From NCBI RefSeq assembly GCF_056712565.1, contig NZ_CM160072.1: 64,000 bases of DNA; one strand, 5' to 3'. A program made the translations under genes and the position numbers. The notes under the pieces were generated by a model. The model searched no databases and was not told where the DNA came from. It saw only the letters and a program-made list of their open reading frames with translations. Every line of letters starts with the position of its first letter. The first letter of the stretch is position 1. Of this stretch, positions 39,892 to 58,140 are shown in pieces.

Positions 39892-40317
39892 CTACTTAAT
39901 TGAGTCCAGTAACAAGTTACAGTTACTCTCATTGTAGAGAGAACGAGCAATTAGTGTTACCTGCTTTCCATTCATTCCCGGCTTATCCCATAACACAGCT
40001 TCTTGCGACGCCACAAATTCAGCATAATCAATTATGCGTTGTTCGTGATCTGGTTCCTCATAGCCAAAGTATGAGAGCGCATCGTTGTAAGCGTGGTAAG
40101 CTGCTTTCTGTAATATCTTGATATCGGCTGTAGGTACTTGCTCCGTGTAGCTAGGATCTAATTGTGTGCTACTGCCATAGAATGCACATGAAAGGTAAGA
40201 TATTGATTTCTGTTGAGCTTTAGTTCCTTTCTCATAGTTTTTAGCTGTTACCGCCTGAACAGGGACGCTAACAAAGCTTGCAACCAGAATTAAAATTAAT
40301 ACGTAAAAGCTTTTCAT
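39892..40317 (-). CDS. secreted protein of unknown function (cargo)
   Basis: 141 aa; signal peptide MKSFYVLILILVASFVSVPVQA; lower-GC segment; opposite strand to flanking phage genes. Confidence 0.6.
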   Translation of the reverse strand: MKSFYVLILILVASFVSVPVQAVTAKNYEKGTKAQQKSISYLSCAFYGSSTQLDPSYTEQVPTADIKILQKAAYHAYNDALSYFGYEEPDHEQRIIDYAEFVASQEAVLWDKPGMNGKQVTLIARSLYNESNCNLLLDSIK

Positions 40318-40617: not shown

Positions 40618-40659
40618 TAGATCATGCTCCTGCATGAAAACCACTACATAAAGCGGGCA

Positions 40660-40678
40660 GGCGTGGCGGGGATACGAG
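40660..40678. other. cos-like site (P2/186-type cohesive end sequence)
   Basis: GGCGTGGCGGGGATACGAG; first 13 nt identical to the 186 cohesive end (GGCGTGGCGGGGAAAGCAT) as recalled from the literature. Confidence 0.45.
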
Positions 40679-40692
40679 CGCGCGCTTGCACC

Positions 40693-40721
40693 TTGATATT
40701 CACGGTTTGGTTAAGTATTGT
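40693..40721 (+). promoter_or_regulatory. putative sigma70 promoter for the protease operon
   Basis: TTGATA-N17-TATTGT about 40 bp upstream of the protease start. Confidence 0.3.
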
Positions 40722-40761
40722 CTTAGTCAGAGTCCATAACATATTACAGAATGGAGTTGTT

Positions 40762-41409
40762 ATGATTGGTCCTGAATATGTCGTAGTTGTTGGCGTGCTT
40801 AATGCAGGTTTGGTTAGTTTTTTAGGAACAGGTTTTTTTATTTCTAAGGATAAAATAATTACTTCCCGCCATGTTATTAATGGGTTTTCTTCTAACTTAG
40901 TTATTTCTCCATCTAATATAAATAACTTTAATAGTTATCAGGATACAAGTGTTGATAAATTTCAATGTATTGGAGTTGATGTTATTGATGAAGATCCAAT
41001 AAAAGACTTATGTGTGTTAAAAATTAAAAATGCACCTGTTTATGAACCTTGCCTAAAAATTGCTACTCTTGACGATGTTAATGTCGGTGAAGATGTGGGT
41101 ATTTTAGGTTTCCCACATTGTAATGAAAATAGAAAAGTATTGACATTTCAAACGGCAAAAATAGGTGCAAAAGTTTTACTTTCAAGCAGTAATATTCAAT
41201 CTAAACATGCCGTTATAAATATCCAAACCAGACCTGGTCAATCGGGATCGATTGTATTTAATTTAAAAAATGACTCGGTAATAGGCGTCTTGGTTGGCGC
41301 TTATGCAAATAATTCTGGAGGTTCTGTTTTGGTTGGAGGTATTAATCCAGCTGAACTACATCAGACAACTTATGCGGTTTCTGCAGAATATGTTAAGGAT
41401 ATGTTATGA
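40762..41409 (+). CDS. trypsin-like (S1/chymotrypsin-fold) serine protease, stand-alone domain
   Basis: 216 aa from MIGPEYVVVVG... (GGAG RBS); candidate triad His in GTGFFISKDKIITSRHV, Asp in DLCVLKI, Ser in RPGQSGSIVF; about 30% GC. Confidence 0.75.
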   Translation: MIGPEYVVVVGVLNAGLVSFLGTGFFISKDKIITSRHVINGFSSNLVISPSNINNFNSYQDTSVDKFQCIGVDVIDEDPIKDLCVLKIKNAPVYEPCLKIATLDDVNVGEDVGILGFPHCNENRKVLTFQTAKIGAKVLLSSSNIQSKHAVINIQTRPGQSGSIVFNLKNDSVIGVLVGAYANNSGGSVLVGGINPAELHQTTYAVSAEYVKDML

Positions 41410-41852
41410 TTGCTATACCAAATGAAGATGCTGAGTCTTGGTTGTCCACTTTAAAAACGTATCAATCTTCATCTGTCAGGAATTTTCTCGAAAATGGCGA
41501 TGAAGAAAAGGCTCTTGAGCTATGGCTAACTGCATCTGGCCCAAGTTCAGTTGCTCAATTTGGCGGTGATAATTCAAAAATGCCGGGAAGAAAAGCGTTT
41601 GTTGAGCAGTTTAAATTAGAGTTTAAGGCTTTTGTATGTGGAGGTGATAAATATGCAGAGGAGAGGGAATGTTTAGGAGCACTGACTGGTGATGTTAAAA
41701 CATACTTTGTAGGGGTGATCTCTTCGGCAATTGCGGGTTCTTTGGGGGCAACAGCAACATTTATTGCTCCAGCTGTAGTAATTATGTTGATAGCTGTCTC
41801 AAAAATGGGAATTAATGCTTGGTGTTCATTAGAGACAACGACAGAATCTTAG
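41406..41852 (+). CDS. small tail-anchored membrane protein, partner of the protease
   Basis: 148 aa; start overlaps protease stop (ATGA); C-terminal Gly/Ala-rich hydrophobic helix YFVGVISSAIAGSLGATATFIAPAVVIMLIAVS; AT-rich. Confidence 0.6.
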   Translation: MIAIPNEDAESWLSTLKTYQSSSVRNFLENGDEEKALELWLTASGPSSVAQFGGDNSKMPGRKAFVEQFKLEFKAFVCGGDKYAEERECLGALTGDVKTYFVGVISSAIAGSLGATATFIAPAVVIMLIAVSKMGINAWCSLETTTES

Positions 41853-41855
41853 GAA

Positions 41856-41880
41856 AACGCCCTTTTAGGGCGTTTTTTTA
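41856..41880 (+). terminator. rho-independent terminator after the protease operon
   Basis: AACGCCCT-ttta-AGGGCGTT followed by TTTTTTT; overlaps the portal gene stop on the other strand. Confidence 0.6.
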
Positions 41881-42906
41881 TAAATCATAATGCTGAAATC
41901 GGATAGTTTTCTCACCTAACCATTCATTAACTTCCATTATTCTTTTTTGGAGTGGAATTAGTTCATTTCTAACAAAAACCTTACTCGCCTTCTCCACATC
42001 CCCAAACCCTCCAACATTATTAGGCATTATCCCCATCATTTGTGGCGGCACACGATGCGCCGCCATCATGTCGTCCCGGCTCACGTTCTTGATATTCAGG
42101 AACTCATCCTTCGCCGCCACTTCTGACAACGGGATAATCTGAAGCCCGTCCTTTTTACCGTTAGGCGAGTACATAAACAGGTTACGGAAGTTACCAGGAC
42201 CTTTGGCACTTTTCATCGCGTTGCGGAGATTGTTCACATCCTCCTGATTCTGCGCGGCATCGGTCATATACATGATGAAGCCTGCATGGCTGCCGTTGAT
42301 GTAATACTTGCGGCGGAACAGCGTGGCGGACTTATTGAGCAGGGCTGACGGAATGGCAGAAAGATAGCCGGGCAGGCCGTAGATCTCCTGGTTGATGTCC
42401 GGTTCCATCAGATGAAAAATGCTGCCTTTCGTGAACTGATACGGCTGGGTTGTCATACCGTATTGCACAAACCAGTAGGTATCCAGGTCTAACCCGCGTC
42501 GGGTGTATTTTGCCAGCGCAGGATCAAGGGCGATAACTTCACCGAATCGGTTCGTGCGTTTCTCCAGGTAGGCGTTACCAAATACCAGATAGTCCTGCAC
42601 AAAACGCGAAAAAGCCTGCTGGCTGAGCAGCGGATGAGGGATATAGGTACTGGTCAGAATGTTGCACTTTACTGCAATCGGAGAACTGTGATGCACGGCG
42701 GCGCGGAAGGTGCGCGCCAGTCCGTCAAAGCTGACGGGCGGCTCATACCAGCGATCTGTCTGTACGCATTCCACATAGTCCAGCAGTTCACGGCGGTCCA
42801 GAACAGGAACGGGATCACCGAAGCTGAATGCTTCGGCTGAAGTCTGGCTTTTATGCTGGAGCTGGTTCGTCGACGCAGCGCGGTTCTTCTTACTCTTTCC
42901 CATCAA
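41878..42906 (-). CDS. Q: portal protein (P2 gpQ-like)
   Basis: 342 aa; size and position (upstream terminase on the same strand) match P2 Q. Confidence 0.88.
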   Translation of the reverse strand: MMGKSKKNRAASTNQLQHKSQTSAEAFSFGDPVPVLDRRELLDYVECVQTDRWYEPPVSFDGLARTFRAAVHHSSPIAVKCNILTSTYIPHPLLSQQAFSRFVQDYLVFGNAYLEKRTNRFGEVIALDPALAKYTRRGLDLDTYWFVQYGMTTQPYQFTKGSIFHLMEPDINQEIYGLPGYLSAIPSALLNKSATLFRRKYYINGSHAGFIMYMTDAAQNQEDVNNLRNAMKSAKGPGNFRNLFMYSPNGKKDGLQIIPLSEVAAKDEFLNIKNVSRDDMMAAHRVPPQMMGIMPNNVGGFGDVEKASKVFVRNELIPLQKRIMEVNEWLGEKTIRFQHYDL

Positions 42907-44582
42907 AAAATCTCCACAATATTACTGGTATTGGCGGACTCGCCCTGCAGTGGTTCGTTAAACAGTGCGTGCATTGTTGCCCAGGCCAGATCGGCGTGGC
43001 TGGCTTCTTCGCTGCGGCTGGCTTCATAGGTCGGGCGGTTGCCGCTGGCGGTGGTTGCGCGACGGATTGCCATGAATGACTGCGCAATGTCGGTGTGTCC
43101 GGCGTCAAACTCCAGACGGCGGTGGCTGATAATGTCGTAGGCCTTGAGTACCAGGGCGTTTTTAACGTTGGGGTTGTAGACAAACTCCCGGACGGCAGGA
43201 AAGAACGCTTTCACGTTCTCATAAACCCCGTGACCGACACCTGTCGAGTCGATGCCGATATATGTCACGTTGTACTGTTCGGTCAGTTTTTTGATGGCGT
43301 CCGCCTGGGCGCGGAAGTCCATCCCGCGCCACTGGTGACGCTCAAGAATACGGAACTTACCGCCCGGCACGGCTGGCGGAGCCACCACCACGCATCCGGC
43401 ACTGTCGCCGTTCTGCGTACCTTTTGCCGGGTCATAACCGATCCACACTTCGCGCCAGCCAAACGGGCGCAGCGCCAGTGCATGAAAGTCGGTCCAGACT
43501 TCCCAGCTGTCCACCATGCACGCCTGCAATTCGCTGAGCGGGAACACAGATGCGAGATCGTCAACGAACTCGCACATCAGCAGGTTCTGGTATTCGTCCG
43601 GGCTGTACTCCATGCGCAACTGGTCGAGGTCGAACAGGTTACAGCCGCCGCGTACCGCATCTTCCACGGTGACTATCTGGCGGTATTGCCCGTCTGCGCA
43701 CAGCAGGCCGGGGGCCAGATTGCTGTGGGACAGGTCGATGTCCACCTTATCGGCTTTGTTGCGCCCACGGTTGAACAACGCGCCGGACCAGAACGGATAA
43801 GCACTGTGGGTCAGGCTGGATGGCGTGGAAAAATAGGTCTGTCGCCATTTCTTGTGAATAGCCATACCGGAAGCCACTTTGCGCAGCTCCTGAAATTTTG
43901 GTATCCAGAAATATTCATCCAGATACAGGTTGCCGTGATAACTCTGGGCCGTGCGGGCATTGGTGCCTAGGAAGTAAAGCGTGGCCCCGTTAGGAAGCAC
44001 CATCGGATCGCCTTTCAGCTCCACCTCCACTTCTTTGGCGAAGTCGATGATGTACTGCTTAAAGACGTGGGCCTGTGCCTTACTGGCGGAAAGGAAAATC
44101 TGGTTACGCCCGGTAAGCAGAGCGTCAATCAGGGCTTCACGGGCAAAGTAAAAGGTTGCGCCGATCTGGCGTGACTTCAGCAGGTTGCGGATGCGGTTGT
44201 TTTTTCCGGCTTCCCACCAGTGGCGCTGGTAGTTGAACATGGAGGAATGGAAGATTTCTTCCAGCTTCTCAATCTGTTCATCGGTGAAAACGTTCTTTTC
44301 CGGCTGACGGCGCGGGCCTTTGTTGCGGTTGGCGACGTTAGGGTTTAAGTCGGCTTCGTTGCCGCCATTGTTAAACTTGCCGATCCGCGCATGGCGCTCC
44401 GACTGGCGCGCCAGCAGGTCAATCTCTTTGAAATCTTTCCCTTCTTTGTGCTCCTTCATAATGAGCTGGCAGTAGCGTGCGGCGGTGGTGAGCTGCATCT
44501 GATCCAGCGGCCCATAGTCACCCCACTTGTCGCGTTTTTTCCAGCTGTTCCAGTAAGTTTTTTCTAACGGAGCACGGCTCAT
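42903..44582 (-). CDS. P: terminase large subunit (P2 gpP-like)
   Basis: About 559 aa (ORF could extend to 44630 or start later); Walker-type ATPase plus nuclease; overlaps the portal start. Confidence 0.88.
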   Translation of the reverse strand: MSRAPLEKTYWNSWKKRDKWGDYGPLDQMQLTTAARYCQLIMKEHKEGKDFKEIDLLARQSERHARIGKFNNGGNEADLNPNVANRNKGPRRQPEKNVFTDEQIEKLEEIFHSSMFNYQRHWWEAGKNNRIRNLLKSRQIGATFYFAREALIDALLTGRNQIFLSASKAQAHVFKQYIIDFAKEVEVELKGDPMVLPNGATLYFLGTNARTAQSYHGNLYLDEYFWIPKFQELRKVASGMAIHKKWRQTYFSTPSSLTHSAYPFWSGALFNRGRNKADKVDIDLSHSNLAPGLLCADGQYRQIVTVEDAVRGGCNLFDLDQLRMEYSPDEYQNLLMCEFVDDLASVFPLSELQACMVDSWEVWTDFHALALRPFGWREVWIGYDPAKGTQNGDSAGCVVVAPPAVPGGKFRILERHQWRGMDFRAQADAIKKLTEQYNVTYIGIDSTGVGHGVYENVKAFFPAVREFVYNPNVKNALVLKAYDIISHRRLEFDAGHTDIAQSFMAIRRATTASGNRPTYEASRSEEASHADLAWATMHALFNEPLQGESANTSNIVEIF

Positions 44583-45930
44583 GACAGTGAAAGCAAAGCG
44601 TTTTCGCATCGGGGTGGAAGGTGCCACCACCGACGGACGCGAAATCCAGCGTGAATGGCTGGAACAGATGGCAGCCAGCTACAACCCGGCGGTGTATACC
44701 GCGCTGATTAACCTTGAGCACATCAAGTCTTATATACCGGACAGCACCTTTAACCGCTACGGCAAGGTGACGGCGCTGTTTGCTGAAGAAATCACGGAAG
44801 GTCCGCTGGCAGGCAAGATGGCGCTGTATGCCGACGTTGAGCCAACGGAGTCCCTGGTGGAACTGGTGAAAAAAGGCCAGAAATTATTCACCTCTATGGA
44901 AGTCAGCCCGAAGTTCGCTGATACGGGCAAAGCCTACCTGGTCGGCCTGGCTGCCACTGATGACCCTGCCAGTCTGGGTACGGAAATGCTGACATTCAGC
45001 GCCAGTGCAGCCCATAACCCGCTGGCAAACCGCAAGCAGAATCCTGCCATGACTGAGCAGTCCGGTCAGCTGCTGGGGCTGGGTGTTGGCAGCACCATTG
45101 CCGGAACCACTGACACCACCGCAAAAGAGCGTGAACCTGTCGATCCGACGCTGATGGTCGATGTGGAATATAAATGCGAGCAGACCAACTTTGACACGGT
45201 GCTGACCTACGCGAAGCTGGACCTGTGGGCGAAGTTTCAGGATTTCCAGGTGCGTATCCGTGACGCCATCGTGAAACGTCAGGCACTGGACCGCATCATG
45301 ATCGGCTTTAACGGCGTGAAGCGTGCGAAAACCTCCAACCGTAGTGAAAACCCGCTGCTGCAGGATGTGAACAAAGGCTGGCTGCAGAAAATCCGTGAGG
45401 ATGCACCGGATCACGTCATGGGCAGCACCACCACGGGCGGCGAAACCACACCGGGTGCGGTGAAAGTCGGTAAAGGGGGCGAATATGCCAACTTGGACGC
45501 TGTGGTGATGGATGCGGTCAATGAGCTTATCGACGTGGTCTACCAGGACGATGACGATCTGGTGGTGATTTGCGGTCGTGAACTGCTGTCTGACAAGTAT
45601 TTCCCGCTGGTCAACAAAGAGCAGGAAAACAGTGAAAAATTGGCAGCCGATATGATTATCAGTCAGAAACGCATGGGCGGTCTGCAGGCCGTGCGTGCGC
45701 CGTTCTTCCCGCCGAATGCGCTGCTGATCACCCGTCTGGATAACCTGTCCATCTACTGGCAGGAAGACACCCGCCGCCGTTCAGTTATCGACAACCCGAA
45801 ACGTGACCGGATTGAAAACTTTGAATCCGTTAACGAAGCCTATGTGGTTGAGGACTACCGCTGCGCCGCACTGGTGGAAAACATCCAGATTGGTGATTTC
45901 AGCGCCGCCGCAGCCGAAACCGGAGCGTAA
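44581..45930 (+). CDS. scaffold/protease (gpO-like N-terminus) fused in frame to major capsid (gpN-like) C-terminal region
   Basis: 449 aa; N-terminus FRIGVEGATTDGR...TSMEVSPKFADTGKAYLVGLAATDDPASLGTE resembles gpO; C-terminus YKCEQTNFD...LDLWAKFQDFQVRIRDAI...GFNGVKRA resembles gpN; interval is about 0.65 kb shorter than the O+N pair in P2. Confidence 0.65.
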   Translation: MTVKAKRFRIGVEGATTDGREIQREWLEQMAASYNPAVYTALINLEHIKSYIPDSTFNRYGKVTALFAEEITEGPLAGKMALYADVEPTESLVELVKKGQKLFTSMEVSPKFADTGKAYLVGLAATDDPASLGTEMLTFSASAAHNPLANRKQNPAMTEQSGQLLGLGVGSTIAGTTDTTAKEREPVDPTLMVDVEYKCEQTNFDTVLTYAKLDLWAKFQDFQVRIRDAIVKRQALDRIMIGFNGVKRAKTSNRSENPLLQDVNKGWLQKIREDAPDHVMGSTTTGGETTPGAVKVGKGGEYANLDAVVMDAVNELIDVVYQDDDDLVVICGRELLSDKYFPLVNKEQENSEKLAADMIISQKRMGGLQAVRAPFFPPNALLITRLDNLSIYWQEDTRRRSVIDNPKRDRIENFESVNEAYVVEDYRCAALVENIQIGDFSAAAAETGA

Positions 45931-54527: not shown

Positions 54528-55930
54528 GCACAAAATTTTATACCCTGCTGACGGATATTGGCGCGGCGAAACTCGCCAGCGCCGCCGCGCTCGGTGTGCC
54601 TTTAAAAATTACCCATATGGCGGTCGGCGATGGCGGCGGAACATTGCCAACGCCGGACGCCAAGCAGACAGCATTGGTAAATGAGAAACGCCGGGCTGCG
54701 CTGAATATGCTCTATATCGACCCGCAGAACAGCAGCCAGATTATTGCTGAACAGGTGATCCCTGAAAATGAGGGTGGTTGGTGGATACGTGAAGTGGGCC
54801 TGTTTGATGAGTCCGGGGTATTGATTGCCGTGGGAAACTGCCCGGAAAGCTATAAGCCGCAACTGGCTGAAGGCAGCGGGCGTACCCAGACCGTGCGCAT
54901 GGTGCTGATTACCAGCAGTACGGACAATATCACCCTGAAAATCGACCCTGCTGTAGTACTGGCAACTCGCAAGTATGTGGATGATAAGGCACTGGAGCTG
55001 AAGGTGTATGTGGATGACCAAATGGCAAAACACCTTGCCGCAGCGGACCCACATTCACAGTATGCGCCAAAAGCCAGCCCGATATTTACCGGAACCCCCA
55101 AAGCGCCGACGCCAGCGGCGGGGAATAATACCACGCAACTTGCGACCACCGCGTTTGTTCAGGCGGCACTGACGGCCCTTATTAATGGTGCGCCAGCCAC
55201 GCTGGACACGCTAAAAGAAATAGCCGCAGCCATTAACAATGATCCGAAATTCAGTACCACCATTAACAATGCGCTGGCACTGAAAGCGCCGCTGTCGAGT
55301 CCGGCACTCACCGGAACGCCAACAGCCCCTACTGCCGCACAGTCGGTTAACAATACACAGATTGCCACTACGGCTTTTGTGAAATCGGCGATTGCAGCAA
55401 TGGTGGGGTCTGCACCTGCGGCACTGGATACATTGAACGAACTGGCGGCGGCGCTGGGGAATGACCCGAACTTTGCCACGACAATGCTTAATGCGCTAGC
55501 AGGTAAACAACCGCTGGACAATACGCTGACTAATTTGAGTGGAAAGGATGTTGCTGGTCTTCTCGCATACCTTGGTTTAGGAGAAGCGGCGAAAAGGGAT
55601 GTGGGCACAGGAGATAATCAGATACCGGATATGTCTTTCTGGTCTTCCGCATCGGGTGGCGTTAATTTCCCTAATGGATTCCAGATGCGATTCGGTGCTA
55701 TCGCTGGTAATGGTGGAAAATTATTTTCTACGCCATTTACAAATCAGTGCTATGGCATTGTTTTCGGACAAACATATGGAGCCAACTACTGGATGTTCAG
55801 CCCGATGTACAGAGCATCTGATCTGAGTAATACCAGTTTTGCATTCATTAACAAAGCCTGGTCTGGAATTCCGGGGACAGGTGCTCAGGACGCTGGTGAA
55901 TCAGTTTTTTATATTGCAGTAGGGTATTAA
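54524..55930 (+). CDS. H: tail fibre protein (gpH-like); C-terminal part lies inside the invertible segment
   Basis: 468 aa; repeated motif TTQLATTAFV / NTQIATTAFV and PxLTGTPTAPT repeats; crossover site inside the gene at 55560–55585. Confidence 0.85.
   Translation: MSTKFYTLLTDIGAAKLASAAALGVPLKITHMAVGDGGGTLPTPDAKQTALVNEKRRAALNMLYIDPQNSSQIIAEQVIPENEGGWWIREVGLFDESGVLIAVGNCPESYKPQLAEGSGRTQTVRMVLITSSTDNITLKIDPAVVLATRKYVDDKALELKVYVDDQMAKHLAAADPHSQYAPKASPIFTGTPKAPTPAAGNNTTQLATTAFVQAALTALINGAPATLDTLKEIAAAINNDPKFSTTINNALALKAPLSSPALTGTPTAPTAAQSVNNTQIATTAFVKSAIAAMVGSAPAALDTLNELAAALGNDPNFATTMLNALAGKQPLDNTLTNLSGKDVAGLLAYLGLGEAAKRDVGTGDNQIPDMSFWSSASGGVNFPNGFQMRFGAIAGNGGKLFSTPFTNQCYGIVFGQTYGANYWMFSPMYRASDLSNTSFAFINKAWSGIPGTGAQDAGESVFYIAVGY
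55560..55585. promoter_or_regulatory. DNA invertase crossover site (left), within tail fibre gene
   Basis: TTCTCGCATACCTTGGTTTAGGAGAA; 21/26 identical to the reverse complement of the site at 57351–57376, 14 bp perfect. Confidence 0.6.
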
Positions 55931-56949: not shown

Positions 56950-57404
56950 TATGCAGCCCTTACGATATAGTTAAATGCAATATTTCGTGGACGGGTTTCG
57001 CTTCCGCCATATGATGATGTAAATCCCGAATATGCCCGGTGTCCCGCATCCGTCGTATTAGCCCAGGAAGGACCGCTAGAAGTATAGATGACCCCATTGT
57101 AATCATGGCCGTGTGCCTCAATGCTCCCGTCCTGAGCAGACAGGAGAGTCCGTCCTGAATCAATTCCTCTTCCATCATCCCACCCACGAATGAATTCGCC
57201 GCGTAAATCTGGCAATTTATTTGTCGGATAAACTTTTGCCAGTTCCGGATACTCTTCGGCAGAAAAAGCTGCACCGTTGCATTTCAGCCAGCCTGTTGGC
57301 GGTGTGACTGAAGGCCACGGAACAGGCACACCTACGGGTAATGCAGAGCCTTCTCCTAAACCAACGTTTAAGAAAATGCAGCGATTACGACTAACTGGCA
57401 TCAT
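56949..57404 (-). CDS. alternative tail fibre C-terminal segment (silent in this orientation)
   Basis: 151 aa ORF whose 5' end contains the right crossover site and encodes VGLGEGS, matching YLGLGEAA at the left site in H. Confidence 0.65.
   Translation of the reverse strand: MMPVSRNRCIFLNVGLGEGSALPVGVPVPWPSVTPPTGWLKCNGAAFSAEEYPELAKVYPTNKLPDLRGEFIRGWDDGRGIDSGRTLLSAQDGSIEAHGHDYNGVIYTSSGPSWANTTDAGHRAYSGFTSSYGGSETRPRNIAFNYIVRAA
57351..57376. promoter_or_regulatory. DNA invertase crossover site (right)
   Basis: TTCTCCTAAACCAACGTTTAAGAAAA, imperfect dyad; inverted relative to 55560–55585. Confidence 0.6.
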
Positions 57405-57431
57405 CCCCGGTTTTTATTCAAGGAGATGATC

Positions 57432-57998
57432 ATGCTTATTGGCTATGTACGCGTGTCAACAAATGACCAGAACACCGATTTGCAACGTAGTGCGCTGAAC
57501 TGCGCGGGATGTGAGCGGATTTTTGAGGACAAAATCAGTGGCACTAAGTCCGACAGACCGGGGCTTAAAAAACTGCTCAGGACACTATCGGCAGGTGACA
57601 CACTGGTTGTCTGGAAGCTGGACAGGTTGGGGCGCAGTATGCGGCATCTTGTTACGCTGATAGAAGAGTTGCGCCAGCGCGGCGTGAATTTCCGAAGTCT
57701 GACTGACAGTATTGATACCAGTACCCCAATGGGCAGTTTCTTTTTTCATGTCATGGGTGCCCTGGCTGAAATGGAACGCGAACTGATAGTTGAACGTACC
57801 AGGGCAGGGCTGGCTGCAGCTCGTGCTAAAGGCAGAGTAGGTGGACGCCGTCCTAAGTTGACTACCGAACAGTGGGCACAGATTGGGCGTTTACTCGAGG
57901 CCGGAGAATCAAGACAGCGTATTGCACTGATTTTTGATGTAGGCGTTTCTACCATTTATAGAAAATTTCCGGCAAATAAGAGCAATGAATCTCCCTGA
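57432..57998 (+). CDS. serine recombinase, Hin/Gin/Pin-type DNA invertase
   Basis: About 188 aa; MLIGYVRVSTNDQNTDLQ with catalytic Ser, resolvase domain plus C-terminal HTH (VSTIYRKF). Confidence 0.9.
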   Translation: MLIGYVRVSTNDQNTDLQRSALNCAGCERIFEDKISGTKSDRPGLKKLLRTLSAGDTLVVWKLDRLGRSMRHLVTLIEELRQRGVNFRSLTDSIDTSTPMGSFFFHVMGALAEMERELIVERTRAGLAAARAKGRVGGRRPKLTTEQWAQIGRLLEAGESRQRIALIFDVGVSTIYRKFPANKSNESP

Positions 57999-58046: not shown

Positions 58047-58064
58047 TGTGTGAATAACGGTACA
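58047..58064 (+). promoter_or_regulatory. late promoter activator site (TGT-N12-ACA) upstream of the sheath gene
   Basis: TGTgtgaataacggtACA centred about 85 bp upstream of the FI start; CAGGAGG RBS at 58125. Confidence 0.5.
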
Positions 58065-58140
58065 ACTGCGCTTAGCTGTTTGTCAGGCACAATCACTTCA
58101 ACATAGGGCGAAGCCTAATCCAATCAGGAGGTTCGCCACT

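Follow-up and report, generated by a model that had tools for sequence, protein, structure and literature searches.

Within a window of 64,000 nucleotides (64 kb) of a B2/ST95-like Escherichia coli chromosome, a P2-like prophage (Wadgaonvirus-like, Peduoviridae) lies between rcdA/ybjJ and ybjL and carries a single 449-aa open reading frame (ORF) where two genes would be expected, one for the scaffold protein gpO and one for the major capsid protein gpN. Is this ORF the scar of a deletion, as a preliminary description proposed, a natural protease-capsid fusion, which the same description offered as an alternative, or something kept for another use? Here, I argue that it is very probably a chimeric pseudogene left by a strain-specific deletion. 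The prophage otherwise follows the P2 gene order (Q-P / O-N-M-L-X-Y-K-lys-R-S) and carries a PDC-M35 pair and an AriA/Old-like ATPase as defence cargo; neither ogr nor the end of gene D is included in the window.

The domain matches of the ORF split cleanly at residues 156/157: residues 6-156 match Phage_GPO (PF05929, model positions 2-152 of 268, E = 3.6e-79) and residues 157-435 match Phage_cap_P2 (PF05125, model positions 53-327 of 327, E = 8.9e-129). In P2 (AF063097), O (284 aa) and N (357 aa) are separate genes, as the preliminary description says, and BLASTP against the P2 proteins aligns fusion residues 5-155 with gpO 6-157 (53% identity) and residues 157-449 with gpN 60-357 (59%). Against the prophage of E. 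coli SF-468, residues 1-156 are 100% identical to gpO 1-156 and residues 157-449 correspond to gpN 60-352, the sole change being V60M at the junction, and the product reads as gpO 1-156, a methionine and gpN 61-352. The preliminary impression of an ORF that starts like gpO and ends like gpN is borne out by these alignments, and the window contains no second copy of the lost parts. The exact 449-aa protein is not on record. As in P2, a gpO protease domain makes up the first 156 aa and a gpN HK97-fold body the last 293 aa, but what is one ORF here is two genes in P2, SF-468, MS15052 and phage 500465-1.

In P2, gpO residues 1-141 constitute the protease, for which S107A is a deficient mutant, residues 195-284 constitute the scaffold, described as 'absolutely required' for P2 procapsids, and gpN is cleaved at 31/32 (PMC7552001). 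The gpO-derived part of the chimera keeps the whole protease domain, with Ser105 aligned with the catalytic P2 Ser107, as well as a predicted LTF|S autocleavage site at about F139|S140; the C-terminal scaffolding domain is absent (PF05929 model positions 153-268), the deleted stretch being residues 157-277 of SF-468 gpO, that is, the linker and the scaffolding domain. The gpN-derived part matches gpN residues 57-352 of PDB 7JW1 and includes the E-loop, P-domain and A-domain. It is not the full-length HK97-fold protein of PF05125 and TIGR01551, for the N-arm and the maturation site are missing: gpN residues 1-60, with helix alpha-0 and the gpO cleavage site 31/32, have been deleted, helix alpha-1 of the N-arm has probably gone too, and the TIGR01551 match is limited to model positions 56-326 (273.5 bits, above the cut-off of 219.65). 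An AlphaFold2 model of intact gpN placed helices at 3-19 and 35-54, in agreement with the published alpha-0 and alpha-1, at a mean pLDDT of only 35.5, which makes the model unusable. The losses of the scaffold C-terminus and of the capsid N-terminus, both anticipated in the preliminary description, are thus located by breakpoints, Pfam and BLASTP alike, and because the chimera has neither the scaffolding domain nor the capsid N-arm, the prophage should be head-defective, as was also anticipated, given the roles of these domains in P2 (PMC7552001).

The window is 99.98-100% identical to the chromosomes of E. coli SF-468 and MS15052, which are equally close to it and whose prophages, together with Escherichia phage 500465-1 (Wadgaonvirus), are the nearest intact relatives. 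It differs from the two strains by two deletions, a flipped tail-fibre segment, which is invertible, two SNPs and a 3-bp indel, and it carries the common ybjJ allele. In both SF-468 and MS15052, O (277 aa) and N (352 aa) are annotated separately, the P/O spacer measures 142 bp and the terminase 588 aa. A shortening of about 0.65 kb had been estimated at the outset, and this is right with respect to P2, where O start and M start are 1990 bp apart against 1353 bp here; with respect to the true sister prophage, 559 bp are missing inside O-N (deletion 2). At the seam of deletion 2, the A of O codon 157 and the TG of N codon 60 make a new in-frame ATG. A second lesion had escaped the preliminary description, namely a 231-bp deletion between positions 44548 and 44549 (deletion 1) that truncates the terminase gene at its 5' end, taking codons 1-40 together with 110 bp of the 142-bp spacer between P and O. 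Compared with the intact P2-type relatives, the prophage is therefore without gpO 157-277, gpN 1-60, terminase codons 1-40 and the P/O promoter region (Table 1).

Table 1. Features of the chimeric locus and of the related prophage genes and promoters, in window coordinates
Feature	Position	Strand	Basis
Portal gene (gpQ), intact	41878..42903	-	Annotation of identical SF-468 sequence
5'-truncated terminase ATPase (gpP) gene, codons 41-588	42903..44548	-	ORF list; comparison with SF-468
Deletion 1 junction, 231 bp missing (SF-468 locus L001 3550-3780)	44548..44549		Base-level comparison
Remaining native O leader, 32 nt, with GGAG ribosome-binding site	44549..44580	+	Comparison with SF-468
Chimeric O-N ORF, 449 aa, ATG start	44581..45930	+	ORF list; Pfam split; BLASTP against P2 and SF-468 gpO/gpN
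gpO-derived part (codons 1-156 and first base of codon 157)	44581..45049	+	100% identical to L001 3813-4281; P2 gpO alignment
Deletion 2 junction, 559 bp missing (SF-468 L001 4282-4840)	45049..45050		Base-level comparison
gpN-derived part (second base of codon 60 to stop)	45050..45930	+	Identical to L001 4841-5721
Rest of O operon: M, L, X, holin, lysozyme, LysA-like gene, LysB, LysC, R, S	45934..49820	+	SF-468 identity; annotation
Retained TGT-N12-ACA site upstream of baseplate gene V	52035..52052	+	Motif search
Retained late promoter upstream of tail sheath gene	58047..58109	+	TGTGTGAATAACGGTACA, then CATAGGGC 55 nt from the start of TGTGTGAATAACGGTACA

Each of the missing segments occurs in more than 1,000 complete E. 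coli genomes, the 559-bp one in 1,051 and the 231-bp one in 1,085. The junctions, by contrast, are private to this genome in the collections searched: none of 5,426 complete E. coli genomes contains a 52-mer spanning the O-N junction, a 28-mer across it is missing from genome, metagenome and viral contig collections, and the P/O junction is absent from complete E. coli genomes and viral contigs. Some other HK97-fold phages deliver the maturation protease and the coat protein as a single polypeptide, and the chimera could be read as a natural and functional fusion of this kind, with its reading frame preserved, its protease domain and catalytic serine intact, a plausible autocleavage site that might release the capsid part, and further O-N fusions in existence. 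Yet relatives with identical flanks have O and N apart, the scaffolding domain, which P2 assembly requires, is gone along with the capsid N-arm, and this locus has lost the promoter and the N-terminus of the terminase as well; moreover, O and N are separate in every annotated P2-like record examined. This alternative of the preliminary description does not survive the comparison with the sister prophages, and its probability is practically negligible.

The further fusions point in the same direction. At least four others, all in frame and each a singleton, occur in draft assemblies of E. coli (P0001, P0002 and P0003) and Salmonella (P0008), with breakpoints that differ from one to the next and products of 412-497 aa. 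Like the present ORF, they join a gpO N-terminus to a gpN C-terminus and match PF05929 and PF05125, and two of the four sit in more degraded prophages; chimeras of gpN with the tape measure protein, with gpU and with gpV exist too. They differ from it in that the junction shows 4-9 bp of microhomology in at least three (the Salmonella junction excluded), and L006 and L009 differ in that the full terminase and the P/O spacer are kept. Independent singletons with differing breakpoints, some of them in plainly degraded prophages, fit random prophage decay better than a natural functional fusion, and the present chimera is likewise ordinary prophage decay, with no new protein architecture.

The breakpoints themselves are less ordinary. 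Both deletions are clean and 501 bp apart, neither junction shows the 4-9 bp microhomology of the other natural O-N fusions, and all that the breakpoints of deletion 2 share is GCCA, at the cost of one additional base. A repeat-mediated deletion or an assembly collapse was considered and rejected, since neither breakpoint pair has a repeat of 9 nt or longer and the deletions did not use the GTTTTTTC and GAGCAGTCCG repeats close by. Two such deletions in near-identical DNA are unexpected under neutral decay and hint at a single complex event, at selection or at an artefact. The last of these, in which the living strain would not have the deletions and they would stem from the assembly, from polishing of the consensus, from the sub-clone that was sequenced or from subsequent edits to the record, draws on the uniqueness of both junctions, on their proximity in DNA otherwise near-identical to that of relatives and on the missing microhomology, in contrast to other natural fusions. 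Assembler mis-joins, however, arise at repeats; the normal strain variation elsewhere in the window (the ybjJ allele, the two SNPs and the flipped tail-fibre segment) points to a real, independent genome; and other assemblies show comparable deletion chimeras. An artefact is thus considered unlikely.

The probable effect of deletion 1 on expression can be judged from the P2 record, in which a single activator site between P and O serves both promoters, O, N, M, L, X, Y, K, lysA, lysB, R and S form one operon, and P and Q form the P operon. A MAFFT alignment of the P/O intergenic regions of P2 and SF-468 was discarded, the two being too diverged and the P start region being misaligned onto the activator site; it was replaced by the annotation of the P2 record and by the promoter of the tail sheath gene as a within-phage reference. 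The SF-468 motif lost by deletion 1, TGTGTGGTTGTCGGTACA followed by CATAAGGC 56 nt from the start of TGTGTGGTTGTCGGTACA, matches this retained promoter in sequence and spacing. Deletion 1 removed the predicted Ogr-type activator site that the divergent P_P and P_O promoters share, along with their predicted -10-like element, and the leader that remains has nothing from before the predicted start of O-operon transcription. On the opposite strand, the truncated gpP gene is without start codon and promoter and has lost half of its N-terminal Terminase_5/HTH domain (residues 11-68), the portal gene following downstream in the now promoterless P-Q operon. A listed 575-aa ORF with a GTG start, reaching 44630, is a spurious extension of the gpP gene over the deletion 1 junction.

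No TGT-N12-ACA site occurs between 31021 and 51234. Further downstream, the site ahead of gene V is likely the activator site of the P_V late promoter, and the tail operons V-G and FI-D are, together with their TGT-N12-ACA sites, identical to those of intact relatives. A scan for sigma-70-like promoters in 44300-44700 came back empty; the native spacer is equally empty, as is expected of activator-dependent late promoters, so this is weak evidence. Since no terminator is predicted at 41700-42000, low-level read-through from the upstream cargo genes is possible.

The remainder of the O operon is identical to SF-468, its coding sequences being intact and its promoter deleted. Because deletion 1 removes the P/O late-promoter region, a promoter is probably lacking for lysis and for X, R and S, which are essential tail genes, and the prophage is probably lysis-defective as well. 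The preliminary description had foreseen intact lysis, tail and cargo genes in a cryptic or tailocin-like state; the first part stands as far as the coding sequences go, whereas the tailocin-like state finds no support at a locus whose P/O late-promoter region is deleted. R-type tailocins also carry contractile-tail genes of P2 ancestry in an element unable to make heads, but their loci are free of head genes and have a functional regulator-promoter-lysis module, whereas here head-gene remnants persist and the promoter for lysis, X, R and S has been deleted. Complete tail and lysis modules with a working promoter and no head genes are, judging by the head-gene remnants and the deleted promoter elements, not what this prophage offers, and the chimera together with the promoter, lysis and tail-completion losses therefore makes a tailocin-like state unlikely.

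A broader form of the idea holds that the element has been domesticated, either as a tailocin-like producer or with the chimera acting as a dominant-negative poison of capsid assembly against P2-like phages or P4 satellites. The tail operons and activator sites unchanged from intact relatives, the continued presence of the PDC-M35 pair and the AriA/Old-like ATPase, and a long ORF preserved by its in-frame status would all agree with it. Against this, X, R, S and all lysis genes belong to the O operon, which no longer has its promoter region; the chimera shares that loss, so the Ogr of an incoming phage could not activate it; and the event is too recent for signs of selection, the allele being unique and its flanks 100% identical to those of intact prophages. 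Domestication is accordingly rated very unlikely, and less likely still is its poison version, in which the chimera, a protease domain attached to a capsid body without its N-arm, would be kept for co-assembling with, or cleaving, the coat proteins of superinfecting P2-like or P4-like elements. Were that version true, the recurrent O-N fusions of E. coli and Salmonella would represent selection for interference with capsid assembly, and the promoter deletion would have shifted the chimera to a different, low-level regime of expression.

Decay by deletion, the preferred reading, can be put as a sequence of effects. Deletion 2 fused O codon 157 to N codon 60 in frame, yielding a product that keeps the gpO serine-protease domain and forfeits the procapsid scaffolding domain and the first 60 residues of gpN, and deletion 1 stripped the terminase start and the predicted elements of the divergent late promoters. 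Up to this point the deletions, their endpoints, the domain content and the lack of both junctions in the collections searched are direct observations; the effects on expression and phenotype that follow are inferences. Procapsid formation and DNA packaging would both be abolished, and the chimera and the downstream O operon (small terminase, head completion, X, holin, endolysin, spanins, R and S) would probably stay silent on induction. The outcome would be a grounded, non-lytic and non-transmissible prophage with defence cargo and immunity genes still aboard, although a second P2-like prophage outside the 64-kb window might complement its defects. In grounded or cryptic prophages, deletions have inactivated morphogenesis genes that are essential, while genes for regulation, immunity and cargo persist. 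The same pattern recurs here, with loss-of-function lesions relative to intact relatives in P, O, N and the P/O promoter region; the present case differs in being very young, its flanks being essentially identical to intact ones, and no signature of domestication can be read from it.

The locus would thus reveal no new biology, unless the rare dominant-negative reading were true. This P2-like prophage and the two defence loci it carries are probably unable to leave the chromosome, and the prophage should neither lyse its host nor help P4-like satellites. The consequence is chiefly one of annotation: the in-frame deletion chimera still passes the curated capsid model TIGR01551, and because it does, pipelines and intactness scorers would call the prophage complete, hiding the loss of a scaffold domain, a capsid N-arm, a terminase start and a late promoter. 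The further O-N fusions are already labelled 'major capsid protein' or 'GPO family' in the databases.

The window is E. coli chromosomal DNA; it extends from ldtB/ybiT as far as a P2-like prophage, which sits between rcdA/ybjJ and ybjL. Within the prophage, the ORF list places a 449-aa reading frame at 44581..45930 (+), with an ATG start and GGAG upstream. It begins like gpO, the scaffold/protease, and ends like gpN, the major capsid protein, just as the preliminary description had it: Pfam divides it cleanly into Phage_GPO (PF05929; residues 6-156, model positions 2-152 of 268) and Phage_cap_P2 (PF05125; residues 157-435, model positions 53-327 of 327). O (284 aa) and N (357 aa) are indeed separate genes in the P2 genome (AF063097), and the alignment suggested as a check matches the front to gpO (5-155 against 6-157, 53% identity) and the back to gpN (157-449 against 60-357, 59% identity). 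The capsid part matches the solved gpN structure 7JW1, residues 57-352. The product reads gpO 1-156, Met, gpN 61-352.

The origin of this chimera is apparent from its closest relatives, E. coli SF-468 (NZ_CP012625.1) and MS15052 (NZ_CP082097.1), which are 99.98-100% identical to the window over all 64 kb. Their prophage has a terminase ATPase (P) of 588 aa, a P/O spacer of 142 bp, and a 277-aa 'GPO family capsid scaffolding protein' apart from a 352-aa 'phage major capsid protein, P2 family'; O and N are likewise separate in the nearest named phage, Escherichia phage 500465-1 (Peduoviridae, Wadgaonvirus; 98% identity). Base-by-base comparison of the window with the SF-468 locus (L001) maps two deletions separated by 501 bp. 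Deletion 2 joins A, the first base of O codon 157, to TG, the last two bases of N codon 60, thereby creating an in-frame ATG. Deletion 1, unmentioned in the preliminary description, takes out terminase codons 1-40, and with them half of the Terminase_5/HTH-like N-terminal domain (residues 11-68), as well as 110 bp of the 142-bp P/O spacer. It is because of deletion 1 that the listed terminase ORF (575 aa, GTG start 44630) overlaps the chimera start, the extension being a spurious read-through across the junction.

Positions of the deletions, late-promoter elements and cargo genes (window coordinates unless L001, the SF-468 locus, is named)
Feature	Position	Strand	Remark
Deletion 1 (P/O side)	L001 3550-3780; junction window 44548/44549		231 bp; base-level comparison
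Deletion 2 (O-N side)	L001 4282-4840; junction window 45049/45050		559 bp; base-level comparison
SF-468 P/O spacer, activator-like site	L001 3717-3734		TGTGTGGTTGTCGGTACA
SF-468 P/O spacer, -10-like element	L001 3773-3780		CATAAGGC
Retained sheath-gene promoter, activator-like site	58047-58064		TGTGTGAATAACGGTACA
Retained sheath-gene promoter, -10-like element	58102-58109		CATAGGGC
141-aa ORF	39892-40317	-	cargo region; N-terminal hydrophobic, signal-like segment
S1-family peptidase cargo gene	40624-41409	+	PADLOC PDC-M35A/B match
148-aa partner cargo gene	41406-41852	+	PADLOC PDC-M35A/B match
AAA ATPase, 652 aa	49966-51924	+	between tail completion gene S and baseplate gene V

In P2, gpO residues 1-141 constitute a protease with gpN and gpO as its cleavage targets (S107A being protease-deficient), residues 142-194 may recruit the portal, and residues 195-284 form the internal scaffold, 'absolutely required' for procapsid assembly; the cut in gpN falls between residues 31 and 32, and the gpN N-arm (alpha-0, residues 1-14, plus alpha-1) holds the adjacent subunit (PMC7552001). 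The chimera retains the whole protease domain, Ser105 aligning with P2 Ser107 and LTF/SAS with P2 LEF/CRT around residue 141; it lacks the entire gpO linker and scaffold region as well as gpN residues 1-60. Autocleavage presumably falls at the bond marked in these motifs; if P2 does cleave itself there, an expressed, active chimera could split into an O*-like protease and a capsid fragment devoid of the N-arm. Judged from their sequence, both halves are predicted to be incapable of their assembly roles. The protein is neither a full-length gpO nor a full-length gpN by the family definitions, and it exceeds the TIGR01551 cut-off (273.5 vs 219.65 bits); annotation pipelines would label it an ordinary capsid protein, as happened with P0001 and P0002, two other E. 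coli O-N fusions.

For the phenotype, deletion 1 outweighs the fusion. According to the P2 record (AF063097), the two divergent late promoters share one activator-binding site in the P/O interval, and the O operon comprises O, N, M, L, X, Y, K, lysA, lysB, R and S; counted on the P2 sequence, the centre of the TGT-N12-CCA element is 55.5 nt away from each of the two annotated transcription starts. The SF-468 spacer shares its design with the sheath-gene promoter retained in the window (spacing 56 and 55 nt, respectively). Because deletion 1 ends at L001 3780, the predicted activator site and the -10-like element are gone and only a 32-nt leader is left. A promoter scan around the P/O junction found no sigma-70-like promoter, and no further TGT-N12-ACA sites occur between 31021 and 51234; a match at 51234-51251, inside the AAA ATPase cargo gene, is probably due to chance (13 matches in the window against 15 expected). 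Both the P-Q operon (terminase ATPase and portal) and the O operon would thus be promoterless, the latter affecting the chimera, small terminase, head completion, X, holin, endolysin, spanins, and R and S (tail completion). The lysis and tail genes, earlier described as intact, are so at the sequence level, the coding sequences downstream of the chimera being identical to those of intact relatives, and no further than that, the O-operon promoter region being deleted. Since that promoter is needed for X, R, S and the lysis cassette, the proposed tailocin-like state is unlikely, and the prophage does not qualify as a tailocin.

The deleted segments are found in 1,051 and 1,085 of 5,426 complete E. 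coli genomes, none of which carries either junction when searched with 52-mers designed so that neither flank alone seeds a match. Genome, metagenome and viral contig collections contain no match to a 28-mer spanning the O-N junction, nor do viral contigs match a 30-mer that spans the P/O junction. The exact 449-aa protein has no database record, and the lost coding parts of O, N and terminase are not encoded elsewhere within the 64-kb window. With the junctions found nowhere searched and the protein unrecorded, the chimera is private to this sequence. A conserved, natural protease-capsid fusion architecture, the alternative initially offered, is rejected: the junctions are absent from the searched collections, the lost segments occur in more than 1,000 complete E. 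coli genomes and related prophages keep O and N separate; the chimera belongs to no natural fusion family of this kind. That it is a selected dominant-negative poison of capsid assembly is scarcely credible, being disfavoured by the promoter loss and by the unique, young allele.

The chimera is a new instance of a familiar type of event, its allele being previously unrecorded. In a protein search, four other proteins with PF05929 and PF05125 cover 100% of the query, namely P0001, P0002 and P0003 of E. coli (497, 412 and 419 aa) and P0008 of Salmonella (432 aa), each a singleton and all with different breakpoints; gpN fusions to gpU, tape measure protein or gpV (P0005, P0006, P0010, P0111) came up in the same search. 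Two of the four O-N fusions are located in prophages carrying further large deletions. The prophage of P0002 (L007) has lost M through T, M being joined to the region before gpU; at the P0003 locus (L008), a 296-aa truncated terminase remnant adjoins ogr and smpB, and 949 bp are deleted, from the 5' end of the terminase gene into the first 28 bp of the P/O spacer but not as far as the activator site. Deletions may strike the P/O region repeatedly. Such varied singletons imply that random deletions in these prophages occasionally yield in-frame chimeras, the only ones that reach protein databases, which thus give a biased view of the deletion spectrum. By function and membership, the present element counts among the defective P2-like prophages, and its O-N frame is a deletion chimera of gpO and gpN.

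Microhomology of 4-9 bp is present at three or more of the four other O-N junctions but lacking at both deletions here, deletion 2 offering no more than a GCCA match, with the loss of one further base. This difference, and the presence of two clean deletions 501 bp apart in near-identical DNA, unlikely as independent neutral events, would suit an artefact; yet repeats of at least 9 nt, able to cause assembler collapse, are absent at the breakpoints, and the window displays ordinary strain variation (SNPs, a ybjJ allele, a flipped tail-fibre segment), so that an artefact is improbable. It is possible that both real deletions arose in one complex repair or template-switch event, or by sequential selection, e.g. 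silencing of a harmful protease-capsid chimera. The window differs from SF-468 and MS15052 by two SNPs; at ybjJ (~30159) it has TCC where they share a 3-bp deletion, and its allele is the prevalent form, shared at 100% identity by all genomes listed among the best matches. The source strain is thus a close relative of both and identical to neither.

As to the cargo, the peptidase and its 148-aa partner have matches (E 8e-94 and 4e-58) to PDC-M35A/B, a candidate defence system in PADLOC; the site of the pair, with the replication module on one side and the portal gene on the other, is a known hotspot for defence genes in P2 (PMC9122126). The nearby 141-aa ORF has no PADLOC match and is hypothetical in the relatives' annotation. 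In the second hotspot of P2 lies the AAA ATPase, for which PADLOC gives AriA (E 1e-21) and Old (E 2e-11) as best matches; the ORF list shows no adjoining partner gene, and the ATPase could be an OLD/PARIS-like single-gene defence candidate. Lastly, the tail-fibre segment 55572-57367 is inverted relative to SF-468 and MS15052; its ends, where alignments overlap by 15-18 bp (55572-55586, 57350-57367), behave as inverted repeats, an invertase ORF lies at 57426-57998, and the segment looks like a Cin/Gin-type invertible host-range switch in its other state.
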